NCBI GenBank assembly: GCA_045837725.1
Contig: JBEWZL010000044.1
Span: forward strand, 248,001 to 312,000
Direction: 5' to 3'
Source: Vermamoeba vermiformis
Lineage: Eukaryota
DNA: 64,000 nt
How positions within the stretch are numbered: position 1 is the stretch's first letter; every line of letters starts with the position of its first letter. A model generated the notes under the pieces. It searched no databases, had not been told where the DNA came from, and saw only the letters and a program-made list of their open reading frames with translations. Shown here one piece after another: positions 3,264-40,100 of this stretch. A program made the position numbers and the translations under genes.

Positions 3264-5099
3264 TTATTTGCTATGAAAAGCAGGAACTGTTTCAAACACG
3301 CCTTTGACTTTCTCGTACGTAAAGAAAAACAGCGCTGAATTGAAGGTCAGTCGCCAAAATGAGGGACCTAGACCCTTGTAAAACCCTTTAAAGCCTTCAT
3401 AACTACAACAATATATTAAAATCTATAATTAAAGTCGAATAATTATCGCTAGATCTGCTACGTACTGCATAATTTTTTTGACCGCATCCATCGACCCAGT
3501 ATATTTTACTTCATGATGTGCTCGTTGTTCCTATTATATTAATTATATATAAATACCTTCTCGCTATATTATATTATTATCTTGTTCTTACTTGTAACCG
3601 TGCTTTCACTACGCCTAACGGATGTGTACTTAACATTGCAGCAATTTTACTCAGCCCACCTGCAACAAAACTAACTGCTCCTCCCTAAATAGGCTATAGT
3701 TAAATATACTATTATAGTAATATAATATAATTTAACGTATCGTACTGTTTTCTGATTCTCTTCTTTGAACACGCGCATGACGGTCTCGTACACGGCAAAT
3801 TGTACGGCGCCGTGATACGATGCTAATAGTGCTGGGACTATGCCCTAATTAGGAAATAATCATCAGGTGAGTAGTGCGTTCGCGGCTAATGAACGATGAT
3901 TTGACAAGTGTCATTGTTCATGAACGAAAAATACCTTGTAATATGCTTTGAAACCTTCTTCTCGCTTTATCCGCACAAATGCGTCTATAATAATAAATTG
4001 TTATTAATGTCGTTCATATTAATCGAAAAAGAGATGCGGGATCCGGATCCAGAAAATCAAACAAAAACGTAAAAAGTTCAAATGATATGTCATTTGATAA
4101 TATGTATATTACCAAATATGGTAAATACAGTTATTTATATTACGTACCAATGAGCCCTTTGTAATGCAAGCTGTGGTGGCTGGGATTGTTGTAATGAATT
4201 TGCATGCGCGTCTTAACGACCCAAATCGGATTAGTCAGCACTGCTGTCACCGCACCTAATTTGGAAAGTGTTACTATATTTGGTAATCGAGCGGAATTTC
4301 TCGAGGGCGAGTCGTACCTGCAGCAACACCGCAGACTAAAGTATGAGATATTGATTTCTTTTGTGCTTTTTCTTCCATTCTCGTCTTCAAATTATTATAT
4401 CTGTCATATTAAATATTAATTTTAAGTCTTAAAATAGCTACAAAATTATAAACCGGTGAGCAGATCCAATTTCAAATAATTTTAACTCTGTTGCTCTATT
4501 AAATAAGAGTATAAATATAGCATGATGTACTTACACATATAAATAGATGCCCCATGAGACTGAAGCCCCTAAAATAGCTGCAGCAGAGCCTTTGTACAAG
4601 CCGCGAACTCCTTCTTGATGAAAAATTCCGCGTAGAGCCGATAAAGTGCTAGTATAACGTGTAACATTCGTCCTCCGACCGTCGTGCACTGAAAATTATT
4701 TAATTAATCGGTGCAAATATTAATTTTAATTTTGTAGCGCGTGACACGAGGAGAAAATTTGGAGATCAGATCCAAAATTTTTATAAAATAGCCATTGCGA
4801 GTAAAAAGTTGATGTATTATAGAAATAGCAATAATTAAGTGCACAGAAAATTTGTTAAATTAATAAATAATTATTCGGTCAACTCTAATAAATTAATTTT
4901 CAGATCTGCTTTGGTAATTACCTTGAAACCGTGTTTTTACAACATCCAGTGGATATAATATAATAGTATTTAATATAGACGCGGACATGCCCGATAGCGC
5001 ATGACCAAGTGAGTTCAGCTTAATCGGAGGGCGGATCTGTTGTTCTTGAACCTCCGTCTGCTCGCTAATATTAGGTTGTGCTTCTTGTTTATCAGACAT
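3264..5099 (-). CDS. mitochondrial carrier (SLC25), folate/FAD carrier-like, multi-exon
   Basis: Three Px[DE]xx[KR]x[KR]-type motifs in spliced exons (YPLDVVKTRFQ, NPIWVVKTRMQ, HPLGVVKARLQ), plus EGVRGLYKG and EGFKGFYKG. Confidence 0.9.
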
Positions 5100-5487
5100 C
5101 TCTAGTCTTATTAAAATAATGGATGGCTCAAAATAAGTTCCGTCAAACAGGCAACAAACCTTTTTGTAGTAAATACAACAAGAGCGAACAATTTTATTAA
5201 TATTCAACATGGTGCTACAATATTAATTAATATTACTTTCGTTATCTACGCCACGCCAACTGAGCTGAAAAGCGATCGCGCCAACACATCCAACAAAAAT
5301 TCAAAATTAAAATTCAGTGCTACAGCTTTGAATTAAATTCAAATATCATGAACGAGTTACCACATGTAATTAATTATGTCCTTTATTGAAGAACACGTGT
5401 GCAATTCACTTTCTGTCCCTTTCAACAACATCCACAATCAATTGCCAGATCTAAATTCCTCCACTTAGAATCAACAATACCTCTGCA

Positions 5488-7388
5488 ATGGATGTCGAGA
5501 AATTTCAAGAAGTACCCGTGAAAACAGTAGGCGACGATGTTTCGAAGCCTTTTCAGCACTATGAAGAACTAAATCTGCCAGAACCTATTGCTGCCAATGT
5601 GCTGACGACTTATAAAGTCCCAACACTAGTACAAAAATACACTATCCCTATTATATTGGAAGGACGCGATTTATTTGTTTGCTCTGCGACTGGTAATTTA
5701 TTTCGGATTTGTTTCAAAGTTTTCCTTGCCACTCTTTGCAATTAAAATATGGCAACTTTTTATCAATTATTTTGCTATTCTATTAACAGATGTTCAATTC
5801 TGAATTATTTCTTGTTCAGGATCTGGCACGACAGCTGCTTACTTGCTGCCTCTAATTACCAAACTTTCGCGCGAAGAGCAGATACCTTCGTCACCTAGTG
5901 TAAGCATATGTCATATTACTATTGAAGTATAGACTCGCGTCACTTGTGACTAATGGATCGCAGAGCACTAACGCCGCATCTCCGAAATGCTTAATTTTGG
6001 CTCCAATTCGTGCCGTGGCCTATAAAATCCTTGCAAAAGCTCGCCAGGTAATTATCCTTATTAAAATGAATAGTCTTCTGCTTAGATCGCCTTAATTACT
6101 GCAGTTCCAATGTTGAAATTGAATAAGAATTAATTACATTCAAACGGAATTAATAATATGTGTTCCAATGCTCACGTCTATTTTTGTAGTGGGGGGATCT
6201 GGTCAATTTGAAGGCTTGTGCTACTTGTGGCGGCGAATCTTTCGATGCTCAATTCAAAGAACTCAGCGAAGGCTGTGACATTCTCATCTCTACTCCCGGT
6301 CGTCTCGTGGGCCTGATTAACCGTGGCTATGTATCTTTGTCCAAAGTCAAGTACTTTTGCCTGGATGGAGCGGATACTCTGCTCGATCTGGGCTTTGAAC
6401 CGGATATACGAGTCATAGCTGAACAGAAGGACATGCCTGCCGTAGGCTTTCGTCAAACAGTGCTGTTCTCAGCGACTCTCCCAAAGCAGGTTCAACGGCT
6501 GGCGCAAGATCTACTCACTGACCTGATTTTTGTGCACGTGGGTGCTGTAGCCACCAGCAGTCCGATTACACAAAAGGTTCTGCACGTCAATGATAACAAA
6601 CACACTGCCCTTGTCGATGCCTTGAATGGCGTCAATGGACCTACGGCTGGTAAGCAGTCCTAATTAAGTTTTATTAAGACGAAGTTCGGATCTTGCTCTG
6701 ATCCGATTTTTTTATTGGTTGGTCTTGACGATCGTATCTAACGTAGTCTATAGTATTTGTTCTGATGCGGAAAACTGTGAAAGAAGTTGACGAGTTTCTC
6801 TCGGGCACTATGGGCCTGCCGTCGATCAGCATCCGCAGTGACCAATCACAAGCTGACCGAAGCGCCGCTCTGGCCAAGTTCGAGTCAGGCGAGCGATCTA
6901 TCATCGTTTGCACTGACGTTACTGCCCGCGGCTTACCCATATCCCGGCTCGCGCACGTGATTAACTACGATATGCCGTTGACCATTGACGACTATAAGCA
7001 CCGCATTGGCCGGGCACGTGGAGACAAATCTGGCGTGGCGACAACTTTTTTCACGAAAAATGACAAGCACCTTGCTAAGGACCTCATTGCGGTGTTAGAG
7101 GCGTCACAACAGGAAGTCCCTGAGTGGCTCAGAGAATATGCCCCTAATCGTGCCGCTGACAACGATAGCACGCACAGCCGAACTTACGGTGGTCGTGGTC
7201 GTGGTAGCAGAGGTCGTGGTTATGGCTCCAGCGCTCCTGTGCGGGGAGGTCGTGGTGCCAATCATAAAGAGCAGCATGACGGACAGAACAATAATCAGAA
7301 CGATACAAGTGCATCCAGTAATGATAATGGAAGCAGTAGTGGCTCCGACATCAATAACAAATCTAAACCAGATAGTAATTGGTGGTAG
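5488..7388 (+). CDS. Ded1/DDX3-like DEAD-box protein with degenerate catalytic motifs (probable pseudo-helicase)
   Basis: PTLVQKY, GRDL, TPGRL, LDLGFEPDIR, FSAT, TARGL, VINYDMP, HRIGR; RGG tail and terminal SNWW. Spliced Walker A reads ATGSGTT and motif II reads DGAD. Confidence 0.85.
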
Positions 7389-7435
7389 ATGGAATAAAGT
7401 ATAGGTTAATATTGGATCTAGATCCAACAGATCGT

Positions 7436-7557
7436 CTGTCCGTAAGCGTATCGCCGTAATGCGGCGCGTTTGCCTTTTGATACGGCATCCTTTGCTGTCC
7501 GTAAGCGTACCACACGTGCAGGGCGTTTGCCTTTTGATAAGGCATCCTTTTGCTGTC
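7436..7557. repeat. about 2.1 copies of a 58-59-bp tandem repeat with a variable core
   Basis: CTGTCCGTAAGCGTA-[variable]-GCGTTTGCCTTTTGATAnGGCATCCTTTG repeated at 7436 and 7495. Confidence 0.85.
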
Positions 7558-8079
7558 TTCGTATCATACAACGCTACAGGTAAGTTGCTGGTGATCGTCT
7601 TCCACCGCTGGCTAGTAAGTCCTTCTCCTCGATCTGGCATTTCATTTCCACCGAGTTACGCCACACACACAACAACTGAACACCGTAATTATCTTCTATA
7701 TTGGTACTATGTGATCTATAATATCTCTGAAATGTATTCTTGAGTGCGGGAGATGTGATCAAGGCCCGTGTAACGGAAGAAATATTCTCTAACGGTCACA
7801 TTCACGAAACAAATCATGATTCTCTTGTATGGCTTTTAAACTGGTACGGTTAAGGAAATATTTCGTTACCGATTTTTTTAGTTTGATTATTGAACGGTTT
7901 TTCTATTGTGCGCGTGAGGCAAGGCTATCACCTGATAATTTAGTAAATCCGACCAAAAATCGCTGAAATATCAGTAATATTTGTCATTGTTTGCCGTTTA
8001 AAAAATATATAAATACGCTTTTGCGACAGTCTTATTTAAAATCAATAATACAAAGCGAATAACAACATCTGAACAAAAG

Positions 8080-9944
8080 ATGAAACATACAAAACTACTT
8101 TTGTTCGCAATCCTAGTTCTTGTAGGACTTGTGACAAGCAATATTTTACATACTAAGAGTACCACAACGGAGTCCCAACCCGAGCTCGATGATCAGAAAT
8201 CTGGCTCAACTTTAGACGCTGCCAAGAGCAAGCTCAAGGAGGTTGCTGAACGCGCTAAGAGCATGTTCACCGGAACCAAGGACCGTGTGAAGCAAGAAGG
8301 CGAGAAGGCTTACGAGACTGGTCGTGAAGGTAAGTCAGATTCACGAAGCAAATTGCTTTGGTGCGCGATCAAGATGCAGCTTTGCTAATCATGAAATCTT
8401 CTAGGCTTTCAAGAGTTCAAACAAGACGCCAAGGACATGTACGAGGGTCTCAAGGCTATGGGCAGTGACGGAATTAAGGCCGATGAGGAGAAGCGCGATC
8501 AAGCTTGCCGTATCTGTGCTGAGTTGACTCAAAAACTCGGTGGCCCGGCTGCCTACGACTATCCTGAGCGCCTCAAGAGCAAGGTTCGCACTTGGGATGA
8601 AGACAGAGCTCAACAAGCCGGATCTTCAGATTGGGCTGAGACCGTCAAGGAGAAGGCCACAGATGCGTACGAGACCGTCAAGGACAAGGTCAAGCAAGGC
8701 TACGAGACTGTTAAAGAAAAGGCTGAAGATCTTACCGACAAGGCTAAAGAAAGTTTCGAGCAAATGAAGCACCACGGCAAAGAAAGCTCAGATGCAGGCT
8801 ACGAACGCATGAAGGGCAAGGCTGAAGAGGCTTACGATACATTGCGCCACTCTGGAGAAGGTCTGAAAGAGTACGGCCGCGACAAGTACGAGAACGCCAA
8901 GGGAGATCTCAGAGATTATTACGAAGCCATGAAAGGCAAGGCTGGTCGTGCGCGTGAAGAGCTCAAGGAAGGTTCGCGCGCTAACTTTGACGAGGCCACT
9001 GGCAAGACTCAAACTGTCATTGAGAAGCTCGGTCAAAAGTTGGGCTTGAAGAAGGATCACGACTACGACGAATCCACCGGCAAATACCGCCAAGACGCTT
9101 TTGAACGTGAACGCGCTAACATTAACCGCGACACTACTGCTCACAGACTGAAGGAGCGCGTTGAAGAAATGCCCGAGAACATCCGCGGAAAGGCCTCAGA
9201 TTTGAAGAACGACATTGAAGACAAGGCTAAATACGCTGCTTACAAGACCAAGGAGAACATCAAGGACTTCGGCGAGCGTGTTTCTGACAAGGCTGAGGAC
9301 TTGGCTGATAAGGCCAAGGACCGATTCAACCAAGCCAAGGACACCATCAAGGACGTCGGATCTGAAGCTGGCGAGCGATTGAGAAACTTCGGCAAGCGCG
9401 CCAAGGATGCTGTTGAAGACCGCACTGAAGACATTAAAGAAAAGGCCGCTGAAGGCTGGGAGAAGACTAAGGACGTCGCCGAGACTTTGAAGGACAAGGC
9501 CGTCGAATCCGCTGAAACTTTGAAGGACAAGGCCGAGAACGGCGCCGAGTACATCAAGGAGAAGGCTGCTAATGGCTGGGAGAAGACTAAGGACGTCGCT
9601 GAGACCTTGAAGGACAAGGCTGAAGACGCTGCTGACACCTTGAAAGAGAAGGCCGCTGAAGGCTGGGAGAAGACTAAGGACGTCGCTGAGACTGTCAAGG
9701 ACAAGACTGTCGAAGGTACGTCATCAAAGTCACGATCCACATGACCGTTTCATATTAAAGTTACTAATCAACTATGGTAATAGGTGCTGAGACTTTGAAG
9801 GACAAAGTTTTGCACGGCGTTGAAAAGGCCGCTGACAAGACTTGCGAAGGCGCTCAATACGTGAAAAAGAAGGCTGAGGGCATGGAAGGTCCTCAAAAGA
9901 GCTTGTTGGACAGAATTAAGGCTCGATTCGGCTTGGGCAAGTAG
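8080..9944 (+). CDS. secreted LEA (group 3)-like hydrophilic repeat protein
   Basis: Signal peptide MKHTKLLLFAILVLVGLVTS; 11-mer repeats (TKDVAETLKDK, AAEGWEKTKD); introns at about 8330-8404 and 9716-9783. Confidence 0.85.
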
Positions 9945-28336: not shown

Positions 28337-31246
28337 ATGGATGACTACCCATTAACCGATCTATCAAATGATATCCTTCGGTATATATTGGAGCTGCTAG
28401 CAGAGGACTCGGTTCCCGGTCTCATCCAAATTTCTCAGCTCAGAACGGTATCAAAAAAAATTAATACAATTATTAATGATGAGTACATCCATACATATTT
28501 TATGAAAACGCTTTTACGGGGTAAGTAGTTCATTCTAAAATATTTCAATTAAATTATTGATTTTCGTTTTGCCATCACCATTTAGGGTTTTCAAAGACAT
28601 ATTTTCCGAGAAAGCTTGACAATATATACAATCATAGAGACGCAAAGGCGTTTCGAAGCAGTAAGTAAATTAACTTCAGAATCTGATCCATAATTACATG
28701 TCTGTTCCTTAGTCTTCAACTCTATGTGGCCGAAAAGCGATCACTTTGCCTCGAGGATGTACAAGCATTATTTTTGGCTTACTTTAAAGGAAGCGGATGC
28801 GACTTTTATGAAAGAATATTTGTCCATTGCCCCGAGTACCGAAGATATCCTGTCACACGATAAAATTTTACAGGTCATCGAAGTGGCAAATGAACGAGAC
28901 GACAAATGTGCGATGACGCTGTGCTTATTACCATATTTAGTATCGTTCTTTCCGAGTGTGGATCCCAACCACATTGACGTAAGTTTTTATTTGTTTCATA
29001 AGGGACTATACTAATGAATTATTAGATGATCAAACTATCGCTCATTTACGGGGTAAAATTGACTATTGAGCCCGAATTCAAAAACGAATTAGCGGAACTG
29101 CTCCGAGCTCAAACATTAGCGTTCAAACCAGAATCAGCACAAAGGCTTGACTCCGGATTATTATTGCGATTCTTAGGTATTTAGCAATAGCGTAATACTA
29201 ATAATAAGATGCTAATTAATAAAAATAGAACCGAAGAAAAAAAAAATTGTTGTACCGCAAGGTAAGAAATTTAATTCTTATTCTTCGCTAATAATATTTA
29301 GGGCGAATATTGGGACCAACTAACGCGACGGATTTATTCGTGAATCATCAAACAGATTACAAAAAAGGCAAACCAACATTTAGGACAACGAACTTTGCCT
29401 TACCGAACGACAAGAGTTACACTATCAAATACATCACCGCATCAAATAACGAAAAAACAATCACTTTTTCCAAGAATAACGAGCTGTATCAGTACGAGGA
29501 CCTGAAAACATCCAATTTGTACGAGTTGTTCGTTCGAACCAGCATTTTTTCACAGATCTTGGAGTCATTCCCACACCAACACGTGGCACTCACGGAAGAG
29601 GCCATGAAGCTACCATTCGAAGAGCAGCCGTGGTTCTTTGGTGCGTTGAGCGATGAAGAGGTCGAACAAATCATTTCAGGTCAGTTCGACAAAAACACGA
29701 CTTGACACTTTGACACGTTGAAATATGACACGTGTCAAAAGATATGTCACTCGCGATTGCTCATATTACAAAATCAGGCGCGGCTGGTCAAACAACAATG
29801 CTCATGCGATCAGTGGGCTCAAATGTTTACATGCACTTTAGCAAGCCTGCTCGTGGGCACAGTAGTTCAAACATTAAGCCACGTCGATTCGACTACGATC
29901 AGAACTTCTGGCAAGAATTCAACTCGGATTCATTCACAAAATTGAATTTGAAGTTCCACACGGGATTTTTTAACGGCGGCTACGTGAAAGATTTGCCGAT
30001 ATTTCAATTTTTCAAAGCGATTGACCGAGGAGACGAAATCAAGACTGTTTGTATGGCAAATAGTAAGTATAAATATATGATTTGCTTAGCTATTAACGTG
30101 CTTATATTATATCATTTCTTCAGGAATTGACCCAGCGCATCCAACTTTTCGACATCAAAACGTTCTACTGGGCTATTTGATCAAGAACCAGGTCGCAAAT
30201 GAAGAAATAATTCACTGGATGATTGACCAGCAGTTTCCTCTTAATATTGAGTACGTCCTAGTTTTTGAATCCGGATCGACTTACTGGATCTAACTTTCCG
30301 TAGTTTAAGCATGTTGAAGAGGCTGCTGAAAAATGTCGGTGTGACAGTCAAAACAATAGAGCGGTGCTGGCCCTTGATAACTGAGTCAATTGACGTGAGT
30401 GCATTGGTCAGTTCGTACTTGAAGGACGTGCAATCAGCGGCGACATCCAGCGTGTCTTTCCCGCACTACTACAAGGCCAGTTACACGCGACGAATGTTAG
30501 TGCATCTCGCGTGGAGATATGGCAATGACGACAATTACTTCAAGATGTTGCCAGGTGAAATTATCGAGATGATTTGTCAGTTCAATCTCGATCCGGCACG
30601 GTGGGAAGAAATTGCGGAGTTTTTAATGCAAAAAACGGTCAATATGATTGAATTCAGCACTGTTAGTTTGCCGATGGACCTGCAAATCAAATTTGGAAGA
30701 TTTTTTTGCGATAATTTCACGAGATTTAAAGAAGAATCTCATGCCAAATATCTGCGGAATATGTTCGCGCATCTACCAACAACGAGCTCGTACGTGCTAT
30801 TTGATGCATTTGAACTCTTGAAATATTACATCCCGAAGATGAAATCGTATTTTTTACGAAGAGACGGTCGCAATGGATTGACAGATCTGTTGCACTTGTG
30901 TTTGAAAACACCGTCACGTGTCACTAAAACCGACAAAAAACTCAATTTAATGAAGAAAACACAAGCACTTGACTTGCTGAAAGTGCTGCTGGACTTTGAA
31001 CCTTTGCGAAAATTTCATCAGAGTGAATGCAGTTGCTCGGACTACAAACGAACCGATCGATTGCCGTGCTTTTGGCGCACAATTAGCCACAAGAACATCG
31101 ATGCTATTGAGTACCTCGTCAGAAACAATTGGATGCCGCTAACGGCCTCGTCAACGGCTTTGTCGGCCACAGAATATGCTTGTATCTGCGGCCACGAAGA
31201 TCTCGTAAAGCCTTTAATGGAAGGCCCTGCAAAGACAATTATATGA
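28337..31246 (+). CDS. F-box protein with SH2-like segment and C-terminal ankyrin-like repeat (paralogue A)
   Basis: N-terminal LTDLSNDILRYILELL...LRTVSK; QPWFFGALSDEEVEQII; FKMLPGEIIEMICQF; SATEYACICGHEDLVKPL. Confidence 0.7.
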
Positions 31247-31441: not shown

Positions 31442-33790
31442 ATGATCAAGAAACTAAAAGGTCGAGCATGTCAGGTAGGAAAATGTTAACAGATTCGATC
31501 TTAAATGAAAAGTAAGGCACTAAATATGTTATAGAAAAGCGAAAGCCTGAAGAGGACTCGGAAAGCAGTAGTACGGATTTAGAGACTGTTGCAGTAAAAT
31601 TTAACTAATTTCAATTACATTAGAAAAAGCAAAAGTGCGAGAAGAACGGGGGCACCAAGGTATATAAATGTAAAGTTAAGATATTCTGATTTTTTTTTTG
31701 CGCATCTGTGGTCCCGATCTAAATCGTTAATTATAGAGATCTCGCCGATGATTACCAATCCCACCAATGATGACAACGAAAATAATACTAATGAATTGCC
31801 CAAACCGAAAATCATTATTCCTCCAGGTAAAAGCACTCTGAAAAATAAATGGGTGAAATTCATTTCTTTACTTAGGGCGACTGTTATTTATAAGCATCAG
31901 AACAGAAAAAGACGTTAAAAAAGGCGTATCGAAGTATATCACGACAAATTTTTGGCACAACAGTGGCTGCATCCGGTACATCACCTCAGACTACAGCAAA
32001 AAGCGAGATGCAGTCAATATCGAGAAAAGAATCTTTATTACAGTGCTAAAAAGTACATACGAGTACGAGGGACTGAAAACATCCAACTTGTACGAGTTGT
32101 TCGTGAGAACCAGCATTTTTTCACAGATCTTGGAATCGTTCCCACACCAACACGTGGCACTCACTGAAGAAGCCATGAAGCTACCATTCGAAGAGCAGCC
32201 GTGGTTCTTTGGTGCGTTGAGTGATGAAGAGGTCGAACAAATCATTTCAGGTCAGTTCAACAAAACGCAACTTGACACTTTGACACTTTGAAATATGACA
32301 CGTGTCAAAAGATATGTCACTCACGATTGCTCATATTGCTAAATCAGGCGCGGCTGGTCAAACGACAATGCTTTTGCGATCAGTGGGTCCGACTGTGTGG
32401 ATGCATTTTAGCTACTCGGACCGGCACAAACGAAAAAGAATTCCACCGTACAAACTCGCGCACAATGAGATCCTTTATTATCAACTGAAGAATATACCTT
32501 CTCCATTTTACACGGGATTTTACAACAACGGTGTTGTAAAAGAACTGCCAATCTTTCAATTCTTCAGAGCAGTCGAGAGAGGCAATTTGGAGGAAATTAA
32601 ACGGGAATTCCTCGAAAAAAGTACGTAATATTTCGTTTGCGAGCTACATTTTTACGAAAAAAAAAAAATTAGGCATAGACGCCCAGCATCCGGCTTTTAG
32701 AAGAAACTGTGTATTGCGGGCTTATTTGCACAAAAATGAGGTGGCGAAGGACAATGGCATCAATTGGATCCTCGATACCCAATTTCCCGTTAAAATCAAG
32801 TACGTTCCGATCATTTTAAGTGGCAAACATTTTAAAATTTAAATTTTTTATGGCAGTTTGACTCTTATGACCAAGTTGGTGACCAATTATGGCACGACCG
32901 TTAGAGCAATAGAACGGTGCTGGAACATGCGAACGGAAGAAATCGATGTTGGCGAGCTAATTAATGCAATATTGCCGCAATATGGCTGGTCATTCGGATG
33001 TACAGGGAATAGCTTCAAAATTAGTCACACAAAAAAAGTGCTAGTACATCTTGCGTGGAGATATGGCAATGACGACAATTACTTCAAGGCACTGCCGGCA
33101 GAAATTATTGAATCGATTTGTCGGCATGAAATTGACCAATCACATTGGCAAGAAATTGTGGAGTTTTTACTGGAAAAAGCAACGAGCCCCATCGAACTCA
33201 ACCTCAAAAAAAGACCAATCCAGCGGGCAGCAGAAATCGGAAAAATATTATGCGACAACTTTATGAAATTTACGGTGCAATCACACATCAATTACTTGAA
33301 ACGAGAAATCAACGAACCTTATCAATATCATTCCGACCAAGCCTGGATCAACATGTTGGTGCTGTTCACAGAATACATACCGAAGACCATATCTCACTTA
33401 GCAGACAATAATACGACTGTGTTGAACGAAGATCTTGGAACACTCTTGCACTTTTGTTTGAAGGGCACCGACAAATACAAGCCAATCGCAATGGCGCCAC
33501 ACACATTCAAATTGTTGAAATTGCTGCTCAGCTACGAGCCACTGCGCAATTATCATGCGACAAAGTGCTCCGTAAACTGCTGTGTGACTTCAAAAGATGA
33601 ATTCATCAGACTCCATGTGCCGTGCTTTTGGCAGGCAATTCAACACGCGAACATCGATGCCGTTAGTTATTTGGTCAGAAACAAGTGGATGCCGTTAGCA
33701 CCTGGATCTGAGTGTCCACATTCTGCAGCAGAATTCGCAATCGTTTGTAAGCACCCGAATCTTGTAGAATTATTGATGCCCGATAAATGA
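31442..33790 (+). CDS. tandem paralogue B of the preceding gene, lacking the N-terminal F-box
   Basis: Shares LYELFVRTSIFSQ..PWFFG, LAWRYGNDDNYFK, PCFW, NIDA..YLVRN.WMPL and intron positions; 5' exons uncertain. Confidence 0.7.
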
Positions 33791-37105: not shown

Positions 37106-40100
37106 TTATTGATTGAGAATCGCGCCGCCGTTGACTGCAGGGTTATGCAAGTTGAGCAGTGCTTGAATTCGCTTCAAGTACGCTGTGTTTCGCAGAGCAG
37201 GCAAGTGCGGACGAATGCGTGCAGCCAATTGCACGTACTCTTTGGGAGCCTTGGTGGCCGATTCAGACAAGCAAGTTTGAACCACATAGTTGCCATAGGG
37301 ATCCTGAAGCAAGGCGACAAGAGGCTCAGGCATGCCATTGGCTGATTTGGCCAAGTGCGCGGGCATAACAGTGACGGAGACCAGCTCTTTGGCCATGTAT
37401 TGAACCGTGCGTGCATTACCAACCTTGAAGCACTTCTCGATGACATTGGAGCTGAACTTCTGTGTGGCCAAGTAGAACAGTTGGCCCAACAAGTTCATCA
37501 CTAGCTTCTCACAAATCTCTTCGAGGTTCAAGTCCAAAATGTATTGCACGACGTAGTTGCCAAAAGCGTCTTGTACCAGGCTCAGCGAGTTGCGCGAGAT
37601 TTCGTTCATCAACTGCAACTTTTGTTGCAAAGTCGCGTGATCGATGCAACGCTGCATGACACAGCAGCCGTGGCGATGAGTTGCAACTTGAACGCAGTGA
37701 CGAGCCACGGCGTCGTAGATGAATTGGTTGTCATTAGGCTCCATCTTCTGCAAGCTCTTTTGAATGACGTGGTTGCCGTTCAAATCTTGAATGAGCTCAA
37801 CGACGCTGCCCTTGAGTGATTCACGCACGACGCGCACTTCTTCGGGGCTGTCCAAGAGCTCGATCATCTTCTGTACAGCACGAGTGCCGTGCATGTTCTT
37901 AGAAATGGAGACCAAATCCTTTGACACGCCCTTGACAATGGCAATGCGTTGATCAGTTGTGCAGTGCTCGATCAACTTCTGACACAAGTAGTTTCCAAAA
38001 GGATCGCTCATCAAGTCCACAATGTGCTCGACAACTTCAGTAAAGATGATTTGTGTTGCTGCGGCATCATCTTCGTCCAATCGCTTTTGCAAGAATCTGC
38101 AACCGTGTTGATCTTTGCACATGCTGTAGATGTTGCCAATGCACTCCTTCAAAGTCATATTGGTGTAACGGCTCGGTGAAGTGATCGGTACACGAGGAGC
38201 AGGAGCAGGGCGCTGAATCTGTTGCTGTGCTGGTTGCTGTTGCTTTGAAGCAATGGAGCTTGGATCCGACACTTGATCCACGTGCAAGAAATTGCAACGC
38301 TCACCGCGGCTGCAAAATCCTTGAGTGTAGTAGCGGCAAACCTGAGTGGTGTTTGGTGGTGCTTGAGTAGGGATGATCTTCTGCATAGTACCGCCTGGTG
38401 TAGTCGGGATGACCATGTTGACCATGCCGGTGGGGCTCGTTGAAACGCCATTCAACTGCTGCATATTCAACACTGGCACTGGCATAGAGTTCGAAGCAGA
38501 TGGTGCGCCGGTGATAGAGATCTTTGACTGAGTTTGACCGACCAACGTGCTTTGAACGCGTTGAGTTTGGACGCCGCGAGGTGACACGCGACCGTTGACG
38601 CGGTTGAGTTGATCTTCCTCTGAGAAGATTGGCTCTTCTTCCTTCGGTGACACCAAAAAGCTCAGTTGATGAGTCTTGCCAGCCAACGACAACAAATCGT
38701 CTGTGGATGAAGACAAATTCGACTCAGAGTTGATGGCTACTTTGCCCAAGTTCTTATTGCGAACTGTTGCACGTAATTAGTACGAGAACGTCACGATGCA
38801 TCAATTAAACACTTACTCTTCGACAGGTCTTGATTGCTCTGCTTGTTGCCAGCAAGGGGAGTCCAGATCTGCTCTTGGTTCTTCTTCTTGATCTTAATGG
38901 GAATGGGCTTGGTTCCGTTGACTTGAAGCTTGTTGGCCGAGGCAGAGGTGGGCTGTGGTGCGGCTACTTGAGGAGGCACGAGCATTGAACCACGAGGCGA
39001 CACTGCCCCTGAAGGCAAGTGTTGTGCATTTCTTGGCATCAAACCAGGAGGAGCGTGCACTTGAGGAGCCATCATTTGCATTTGAGGCACTTGCATGTGA
39101 GGTGGCATTTGAGGAGTAGGACGCTTAGGACTCGTGGGCATGTGAGTCATCGGCGAGTATTGGAACACCATGCCCTGCGACATGTTGTGCGACGCGTTCG
39201 GATCGAAATAAACTCCTTGCTCTGGCACACCATTGGGCAGCGGGCTCGTGCTCATACCAGGCGGGCGTTGCATTGGTGGCATAGCCATAGGATTCGGCAT
39301 GGCGTGTTGTGGTGCGGGAATAAATGTATTGGCTGAGTTCAAGAACGAATTTCCACCGGGTTGAAGGATCGACGCAGATTGGGATTTAGGGATGTGAACA
39401 TTGCTGTTGAGCGCTGCCATTGAAGGTTGCTGTACTCCAAATTGGCCATTTTGATACTGGTGGTTCATTTGAAGTTCAGACTTCGACACGCGCAACTGTT
39501 CCATGGGGGAGATCTGGATCGTGTTAGATGGCGTTACGGGGACGTTAGAAAATTAGCTAATAACCTACCAATAGTAGAGGTGATTGTTCCATAGGTGGGG
39601 GTAGTGTAGAGTGGCCATTATCTTGTCTGTAGGTTTGATAAAAGCGCTCGTAGTTCTCATCGCATCTCACATCCGTTCCGAACAGCCGGTAGTACTCTAC
39701 AAGCGACGATTAGTTACTATAAATAACATCGAAGAGATTGGTATGATTTTAATAAGCATCATAGTGATACGACTCAAAATTTCGGAATAAATTGAGATCT
39801 GAGATGCAGATGAATTCACCCGTAATTGATTTTATGGCAAATTAAAGGATACCAAAAGATTAAACTGCATGAATTAAATGTTCCACGGGAAGGATTGAAT
39901 TAATAAGTTGTTGGGTACAGATGGCTGTCCCAAAACGTAAAAACTACCAGAAGATTCTTCTAAGCATAAATTACAAGTAATTTAACGAAGGATTAATTAT
40001 TTGTGGCATAGATAATATAAATATACTTAATTTTACGTTAATAAAACCATCGTAATTACCTGCTGGTTCGAATCCGTCTGTGTTGAAAGCGAAAAGAGAC

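Follow-up and report, generated by a model that had tools for sequence, protein, structure and literature searches.

DDX3/Ded1 is a central helicase of translation initiation and of stress granules, and in DEAD-box proteins mutation of either the Walker A lysine or the glutamate of the DEAD motif abolishes ATPase activity. A DEAD-box protein can also serve without unwinding, as eIF4AIII does in the exon junction complex, where it forms a static RNA clamp with its motifs intact and is locked by its partners with ATP bound. To our knowledge, the behaviour of ATPase-dead DDX3/Ded1 is known from engineered or disease mutants, and literature searches outside subscription journals, judged by title or the opening of the abstract, brought up no paper on a naturally occurring DDX3 paralogue without ATPase activity. 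Among pseudohelicases, the yeast small-subunit (SSU) processome protein Utp25, whose motifs are vestigial, has been termed ‘the first fully validated pseudohelicase’ (PMC9539457), and C. elegans MUT-15 is described in a preprint as lacking the Q motif, carrying NNAE for DEAD, showing no ATPase activity and scaffolding the CPUG complex (bioRxiv 10.64898/2026.09.04.749402). Here we analyse a DDX3-type gene at positions 5488-7388 (plus strand) of a 64,000-nucleotide stretch of Vermamoeba vermiformis DNA (contig JBEWZL010000044.1 of assembly GCA_045837725.1, positions 248,001 to 312,000 of the forward strand; hereafter the window), which probably encodes a maintained, ATPase-impaired, DDX3-derived pseudohelicase that would bind RNA or protein independently of ATP.

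The gene consists of five exons separated by four introns of 127, 64, 142 and 104 nt, all bounded by GT..AG, and its coding sequence (CDS) of 1464 nt translates into 487 residues without a single internal stop or frameshift, at a G+C content of 0.50 versus 0.27-0.39 in the introns. Evidence for transcription comes from contigs of sequencing run X5, a close relative under a different label whose record only guesses ‘RNA’: over the gene these contigs carry the joints 5691/5819, 5899/5964 and 6648/6753, all GT..AG and equal to introns 1, 2 and 4 of the model, and both introns of the next plus-strand gene are likewise spliced out. Because the helicase introns and the two introns of that neighbour are removed, X5 contains spliced RNA. 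Confirmation of the splice junctions, which an earlier sequence-only reading of this DNA had proposed to seek by RNA-seq, comes from the X5 contigs for those three introns, and intron 3 (6048-6189), which lies outside X5 coverage, is placed by its GT..AG borders, the reading frame and the alignment. The resulting features are as follows.

5488-5692, plus strand: exon 1, with the start ATG, the N-terminal extension (NTE)-like KFQEVPV, the Q motif PTLVQ (5620-5634) and SATG, the opening half of motif I; a spliced X5 contig backs the donor at 5692/5693, and the first ~120 nt lie outside X5 coverage.
5820-5899, plus strand: exon 2, with the second half of motif I, SGTT (Lys to Thr); X5 joints 5691/5819 (cut at +1) and 5899/5964.
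5964-6047, plus strand: exon 3, with motif Ia PIRAVA (6003-6020); the acceptor is backed by X5, and the donor at 6047/6048 is inferred from the GT, the reading frame and the alignment.
6190-6649, plus strand: exon 4, with the GG doublet, motif Ib TPGRL (6292-6306), motif II DGAD (6364-6375) and motif III FSATLP (6466-6483); based on the Pfam DEAD match, with the donor backed by X5 joint 6648/6753 (cut at +1).
6754-7388, plus strand: exon 5, with the RecA2 domain, motif V TARGLPI (6921-6941), motif VI HRIGRARG (6999-7022), the C-terminal extension (CTE) EVPEWL, the tail and the TAG stop (7386-7388); based on the Pfam Helicase_C match and on X5 contigs over 6753-7349.
7140-7385, plus strand: C-terminal low-complexity tail of 82 residues (14 Ser, 13 Gly, 12 Asn, 8 Arg) with six RG dipeptides.
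7188-7220, plus strand: GGRGRGSRGRG, residues 422-432.
7377-7385, plus strand: the terminal NWW.
5103-5487, no strand: short intergenic stretch separating the helicase ATG from a divergent minus-strand Mito_carr gene, presumably a shared promoter.

Both RecA-like domains score above the Pfam gathering thresholds (PF00270, DEAD, on exon 4: 65.4 bits against a cut-off of 26, 7e-18; PF00271, Helicase_C, on exon 5: 68.9 bits against 23.5, 5.3e-19), which places the protein in the DEAD-box fold family. Its nearest relatives and its grouping, detailed below, assign it to the DDX3/Ded1/PL10 subfamily, and KFQEVPV and EVPEWL align with the NTE and CTE of Ded1, PL10 and RH52 ahead of an RG-rich tail with six RG dipeptides and a WW end. 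For comparison we collected 481 proteins and aligned the 319 whose match to the model spans at least 330 residues at 250 bits or more, dropping 162 as too short or too distant. The long N-terminal low-complexity region of DDX3/Ded1 with its conserved RYxPPHLR segment, known as the eIF4E-binding region, is lacking in the window protein: only 44 residues stand ahead of the Q motif, versus a median of 189 in the 290 comparators that start with methionine, and no PPHLR-like open reading frame (ORF) was seen among the stop-to-stop frames of 5103-5487. The short N-terminus is taken to be real, because the gap of ~385 bp between the helicase ATG (5488) and the start of the divergent mitochondrial-carrier (Mito_carr) gene is too small to hold an upstream coding exon.

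The ATP site is where the protein departs from its family. Motif I reads SATGSGTT (residues 66-73, spanning intron 1 at 5683-5833), motif Ia PIRAVA (residues 109-114), motif II DGAD (residues 182-185) and motif VI HRIGRARG (residues 359-366), so that the Walker A lysine is replaced by threonine, the DEAD glutamate by glycine, the motif I glutamine by alanine and PTRELA by PIRAVA, and in motif VI the spacing between the arginines is one residue short, with a further Thr to Ala change. The features that mark an active DEAD-box ATPase, namely the lysine of AxTGSGKT, the glutamate of D-E-A-D and the arginine spacing of HRxGRxGR, are thus all absent. Retained, by comparison, are the Q motif PTLVQ, Ib TPGRL, III SAT and V TARGLPI, and with them most RNA-contact elements: the arginine of motif Ia, the GG doublet, TPGRL, QxxR (as QADR) and the threonine and arginine of motif V.

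These replacements are exceptional in the sample. GKT stands in motif I of 319/319 comparators, DEAD stands in motif II of 317/319, and the other two, DEID (in a protein that we call P0121) and DEGD, keep the glutamate; the motif I lysine or the motif II glutamate is missing only in the window protein. At a threshold of at least 98% conservation the alignment has 72 near-invariant columns, of which the window protein has lost 21 (P47L, A66S, Q67A, K72T, T110I, E112A, L113V, Q116K, Y136C, D164G, E183G, M187L, F220L, G244A, H304R, G305S, A329C, A333T, D338P, T364A and G367D), clustered in motifs Q, I, Ia, II, V and VI. Five canonical DDX3 proteins taken as controls keep 100% of these columns, and two Vasa proteins keep 100% and 97%, at most about two lost. 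Pseudohelicases are recognized by sequence, structure and function (PMC9539457), and the sequence mark, replacement of the catalytic residues, is present here; for the kept helicase fold the support is the Pfam domain matches, and the functional mark would be a lack of ATPase activity in an assay.

From the established roles of the Walker A lysine and the DEAD glutamate, ATP hydrolysis should be abolished and ATP binding weakened, because both residues and the motif I glutamine are gone and motifs Ia and VI are altered. The protein would have kept the two-RecA-domain fold, most RNA-contact motifs and a Ded1-type RG/WW tail while losing the chemistry of ATP hydrolysis, and it would most likely act through the retained RNA-binding face and the C-terminal tail without unwinding, as an adaptor, competitor or scaffold on messenger ribonucleoproteins (mRNPs) or on the canonical DDX3 machinery. 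We prefer such ATP-independent binding over unwinding in view of the lost ATP motifs combined with the kept RNA-contact elements, CTE and tail. An ATP-locked RNA clamp of the eIF4AIII or DQAD kind was also considered and is less likely, as the Walker A lysine is gone and nucleotide binding would be compromised.

The protein sequence further bears the marks of constraint. Retention of the family consensus is graded by conservation class, at 71, 64, 59, 44 and 11%, falling with column conservation, a pattern that marks selection acting on the fold as opposed to neutral decay. The core carries rare residues (at most 3% in the family) at 108/405 positions. Each missense change in this CDS brings an expected 0.048 stops, so that after 100 unselected missense changes the frame would still be free of stops with a probability of ~0.008, indels uncounted. 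The comparison with X5 points the same way: the 12 listed of the 17 X5-window differences carried by the pieces fall in 11 codons, 5 changed synonymously and 6 with an amino-acid change, and, with one of those six, a two-base change, split into a synonymous and a nonsynonymous step, they amount to 6 nonsynonymous differences over 702 sites and 6 synonymous differences over 222 sites, a ratio of nonsynonymous to synonymous differences per site (pN/pS) of 0.32 (one-sided binomial p=0.045). Among the differences listed, none falls in motif I, HRIGRARG is unchanged and the sole change in DGAD is a synonymous GCG>GCC. The gene is thus intact, transcribed and spliced correctly, and purifying selection probably keeps its frame open.

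These results confirm what the sequence-only reading had observed in the gene and support part of its interpretation. The four motif states that it had given (ATGSGTT, DGAD, PIRAVA and HRIGRARG) are all present in the spliced 487-residue model, the frame is intact across four GT..AG introns as it had stated, the RG region and the terminal WW (GGRGRGSRGRG and NWW) are in place, and the N-terminal low-complexity region is indeed missing. Its description of the gene as ‘maintained’ agrees with the open frame, the graded retention, the pN/pS and the spliced X5 contigs, and ‘ATPase-dead’ is a sound deduction from the known roles of a lysine and a glutamate that every comparator keeps.

As a separate observation, the divergence from X5 is patchy, with 8/12 listed differences lying within 106 nt (6513-6618) and one in the following 281 nt (6753-7033); such clustering could stem from recombination or conversion along a tract, or from a second allele.

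To place the gene, exons 4 and 5 were searched against a collection of 5.8 billion proteins (the ‘longer’ band), where the best matches are DED1, DDX3 (DDX3X) and RH52 proteins at 40-52% identity and none is closer; an exact look-up of the exon 5 ORF found it absent from the protein collection. The nearest protein is P0121 (491 residues, from JGI), at 49.5% identity over 404 residues, with a runner-up at 46.7%, and a local blastp of the spliced protein against it gives E=5e-123. Its 90% cluster has five members, JGI records named ‘DDX3X’. The full-length member P0485 (535 residues) has a 45-residue N-terminal extension with RYVPPHLR, and two others are exon ORFs, P0482 (147 residues, found on 7 contigs, the longest of 367 kb, and ending in ...TLGK) and P0483 (204 residues, beginning with VDTK...), whose ends match the exon 4/5 boundaries of the window gene. 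The cluster is itself degenerate, with DEID in motif II, VACHGIDL in motif V and FRSARLCK in motif VI, each identical in every member that covers the motif, and AQTGSGKT and PTRELA are kept wherever motifs I and Ia are covered (P0121 and P0485, with P0484 for Ia). Searches seeded with P0121 gave next word-indexed matches at 52-55%, HMMER over 1.84 billion representatives gave at most 55% among the matches listed, and a search of the ESM Atlas with P0485 returned generic DEAD-box clusters only.

In a tree of 37 rows (IQ-TREE, LG+C20 with posterior mean site frequencies (PMSF), rooted on a DDX5 row) the window protein falls among the DDX3, PL10 and Vasa rows without support for its exact placement. 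It is sister to P0121 at 93/68, with end branches of 2.16 and 1.17, and the pair belongs to none of the well-supported DDX3 clades of animals, fungi and plants, its position at the base being unsupported; an approximately unbiased (AU) test rejects the union of the window protein with five animal DDX3/PL10 rows (p=0.0026), a group chosen after the tree had been viewed. Independently of the tree, the two proteins have 9 rare residues in common, versus at most 6 for any other comparator, 6/11 of the invariant positions lost in P0121 coincide with the 21 lost in the window protein (hypergeometric p=0.053), and the same new residue occurs in both at M187L and A329C, all of which would lend modest support to kinship. 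The end branch of 2.16 compares with a median of 0.31, so that the rate of the window gene is about seven-fold that of canonical DDX3, an excess specific to this gene. As a yardstick of general conservation, a Rac exon from the same window matches human Rac1 in a PDB search with 202 bits over 132 residues, and the genome is not fast-evolving in general.

Several points weigh against a maintained, ATPase-impaired pseudohelicase. The inactivity of the ATPase is deduced from sequence alone, and the window gene could be the only DDX3 copy of the organism. X5 depth over the helicase is low, at 1-4, intron 3 and the 5' end are uncovered, and the ‘RNA’ label is a guess; pN/pS is borderline and is based on 12/17 differences. 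The sisterhood with P0121 is not starred (Shimodaira-Hasegawa-like approximate likelihood ratio test, SH-aLRT, 68), and since these two proteins have the longest branches among the DDX3 rows, long-branch attraction is a possible cause of the grouping. No further relatives emerged either: a metagenome scan with exon 4 yielded 3 loci at 32-41% identity, which were set aside as generic DEAD-box genes. Finally, runs X21-X23 (RNA-seq under the species label of the likely source, 38.9 million records) place 0 reads on 5048-8600. Over the whole 5.6-kb stretch their reads number 8, 22 and 17, are for the most part partial and are 95-99% alike, and the runs are uninformative on the helicase specifically, because the neighbouring genes are barely covered as well; either the gene or region is silent in these runs, or they come from a different strain. 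Runs X10-X20, whose word shares are small, do not count as evidence for expression or habitat.

In the same runs, partial reads at 4300-4486 and 8600-9700 carry fixed differences (e.g., 4352 T>C, 4361 T>C and 4391 A>T), and the species label may cover more than one diverged lineage.

The low X5 depth, the blank in X21-X23 and the borderline test (p=0.045) are what a decaying duplicate would show, that is, a pseudogene released too recently to have acquired a stop or frameshift, and the very long end branch of 2.16 and the loss of 21/72 near-invariant positions would suit it as well. We nevertheless consider such decay unlikely: the 487-codon frame stands open despite ~108 lineage-specific rare residues, where 100 neutral missense changes would spare it from a stop with a probability of ~0.008, consensus retention is graded with conservation, all four introns keep GT..AG with three seen spliced, the relative X5 has the same degenerate motifs, and pN/pS is 0.32. 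It is equally necessary to consider that the gene is no paralogue and represents the organism's sole DDX3/Ded1 orthologue, in a lineage where this one gene evolves fast, as its position with P0121 outside the supported animal, fungal and plant clades and the AU rejection of the animal DDX3/PL10 grouping would allow; DDX3/Ded1 function normally needs its ATPase, however, which would make a sole copy without the lysine and the glutamate extraordinary, and the conserved Rac exon (202 bits over 132 residues to human Rac1) and the seven-fold rate excess confined to the window gene speak against a generally fast lineage, so that we hold this explanation improbable. That the protein is still an enzyme, a non-canonical ATPase or helicase with other residues standing in for the lysine and the glutamate, is very unlikely, since the elements that would favour it (the retained motifs that serve nucleotide handling alone, namely the Q motif glutamine with its upstream aromatic, changed from F to Y, SAT, both aspartates of DxxD and the H, R and R of motif VI, and also the GKT and DEID glutamate of the relative P0121) stand against the loss of both residues that 319/319 comparators keep (317 as DEAD, the others as DEID and DEGD), either of which by established knowledge abolishes DEAD-box ATPase when mutated, and against the Gln to Ala change in motif I, the altered motif Ia and the changed spacing of motif VI.

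With the maintained, ATPase-impaired pseudohelicase as the preferred reading, a wider and distinctly tentative proposal, which we regard as possible and no better than doubtful, is that the window gene and the P0121 cluster represent a hitherto undescribed clade in which DDX3 gave rise to pseudohelicases, in a eukaryote lineage separate from the animal, fungal and plant clades sampled. The ATP site would have been freed from constraint a single time, after which each lineage lost different motifs (the motif I lysine and the motif II glutamate here, motifs V and VI in P0121), while selection kept the RecA fold together with the motifs for RNA binding, the exon structure and the RG/WW tail; working without ATP, the proteins would regulate or scaffold mRNP condensates or oligomers of Ded1/DDX3. 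The window protein by itself, as a naturally maintained DDX3-branch protein lacking the Walker A lysine and the DEAD glutamate, would amount to a natural experiment on what the fold and the RG/WW tail can do without ATP turnover.

The surroundings of the gene contribute observations of their own. Just 3' of the helicase stop lies a tandem duplication of ~57-59 bp (7436-7550), made up of 34-nt copies at 7460-7493 and 7517-7550 (91% identity) and exact 15-nt copies at 7436-7450 and 7495-7509, which could be a 3'-untranslated region (3'-UTR) element or a small repeat. It is followed by the next gene:

8002-9900, plus strand: a signal-peptide-like N-terminus, then a long amphipathic protein of KDKA/E repeats.

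The sequence-only reading had taken this neighbour for a late embryogenesis abundant (LEA) gene and had drawn from it a possible link of the helicase to stress or encystment, neither of which is supported here. Within 8395-9744 no Pfam LEA family matches at E<=0.01, and the match is instead to YtxH (59.8 bits, cut-off 37.5), with Apolipoprotein at 62.2 bits below its cut-off of 90; the resemblance of the protein to LEA proteins is limited to the character of its amphipathic repeats. X5 contigs remove 8328-8402 and 9714-9781 from this gene, and its X5 depth of 77-333, 20- to 100-fold over the 1-4 of the helicase, gives no visible sign of co-regulation.

Farther along the window, 29295-31246 and 31857-33790 are apparent tandem paralogous genes that have in common the near-identical stretch LKTSNLYELFVRTSIFSQILESFPHQHVALTEEAMKLPFEEQPWFFGALSDEEVEQIISGQF, SH2-like by eye, followed in both by a region of ~320 residues ending in ankyrin-like sequence. 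By eye, the ORF list shows at 37106-39552 a large minus-strand gene whose Q/P-rich N-terminal part is accompanied by a CCCH-like zinc-finger motif and by Pumilio-like repeats. An Rfam search over the whole window gave 0 matches.

Set against the systems from which we started, the window protein is closest in sequence to Ded1, DDX3X, PL10 and plant RH52 (42-52% identity), with which it has in common the same two Pfam domains, the NTE (KFQEVPV here versus FDKYDDIPVE), the CTE EVPEWL and an RG-rich tail ending in WW, an end found in 82/319 comparators. It differs from canonical DDX3 by replacements of the motif I lysine and glutamine, the motif II glutamate and the Thr, Glu and Leu of motif Ia, by a motif VI that is short of one residue, by the absence of the N-terminal extension with RYxPPHLR and by a branch seven times longer. 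The P0121 cluster resembles it in the exon 4/5 boundaries, the shared rare residues, the EVPEWL-RG-WW tail and the long branch (1.17), whereas that cluster keeps AQTGSGKT, PTRELA and the glutamate (DEID), is degenerate instead at motifs V (CHGID) and VI (FRSARLCK), and has the 45-residue N-terminal extension with RYVPPHLR. With eIF4AIII it would share the condition of a DEAD-box protein employed as a non-unwinder, the difference being that the window protein has no Walker A lysine. An ATPase-dead relative of DDX3 would be uncommon, yet with precedent in Utp25 and MUT-15, which have a DEAD-box fold with degenerate ATP motifs and act as cofactors or scaffolds (PMC9539457; bioRxiv 10.64898/2026.09.04.749402); the comparison extends to the DEAD-box fold, and we claim no closer homology. 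Where those two are ancient and very diverged, the window protein would be a much younger and still readable member of the DDX3 branch with its Q motif kept, and as such would join a very short list of DEAD-box pseudohelicases.

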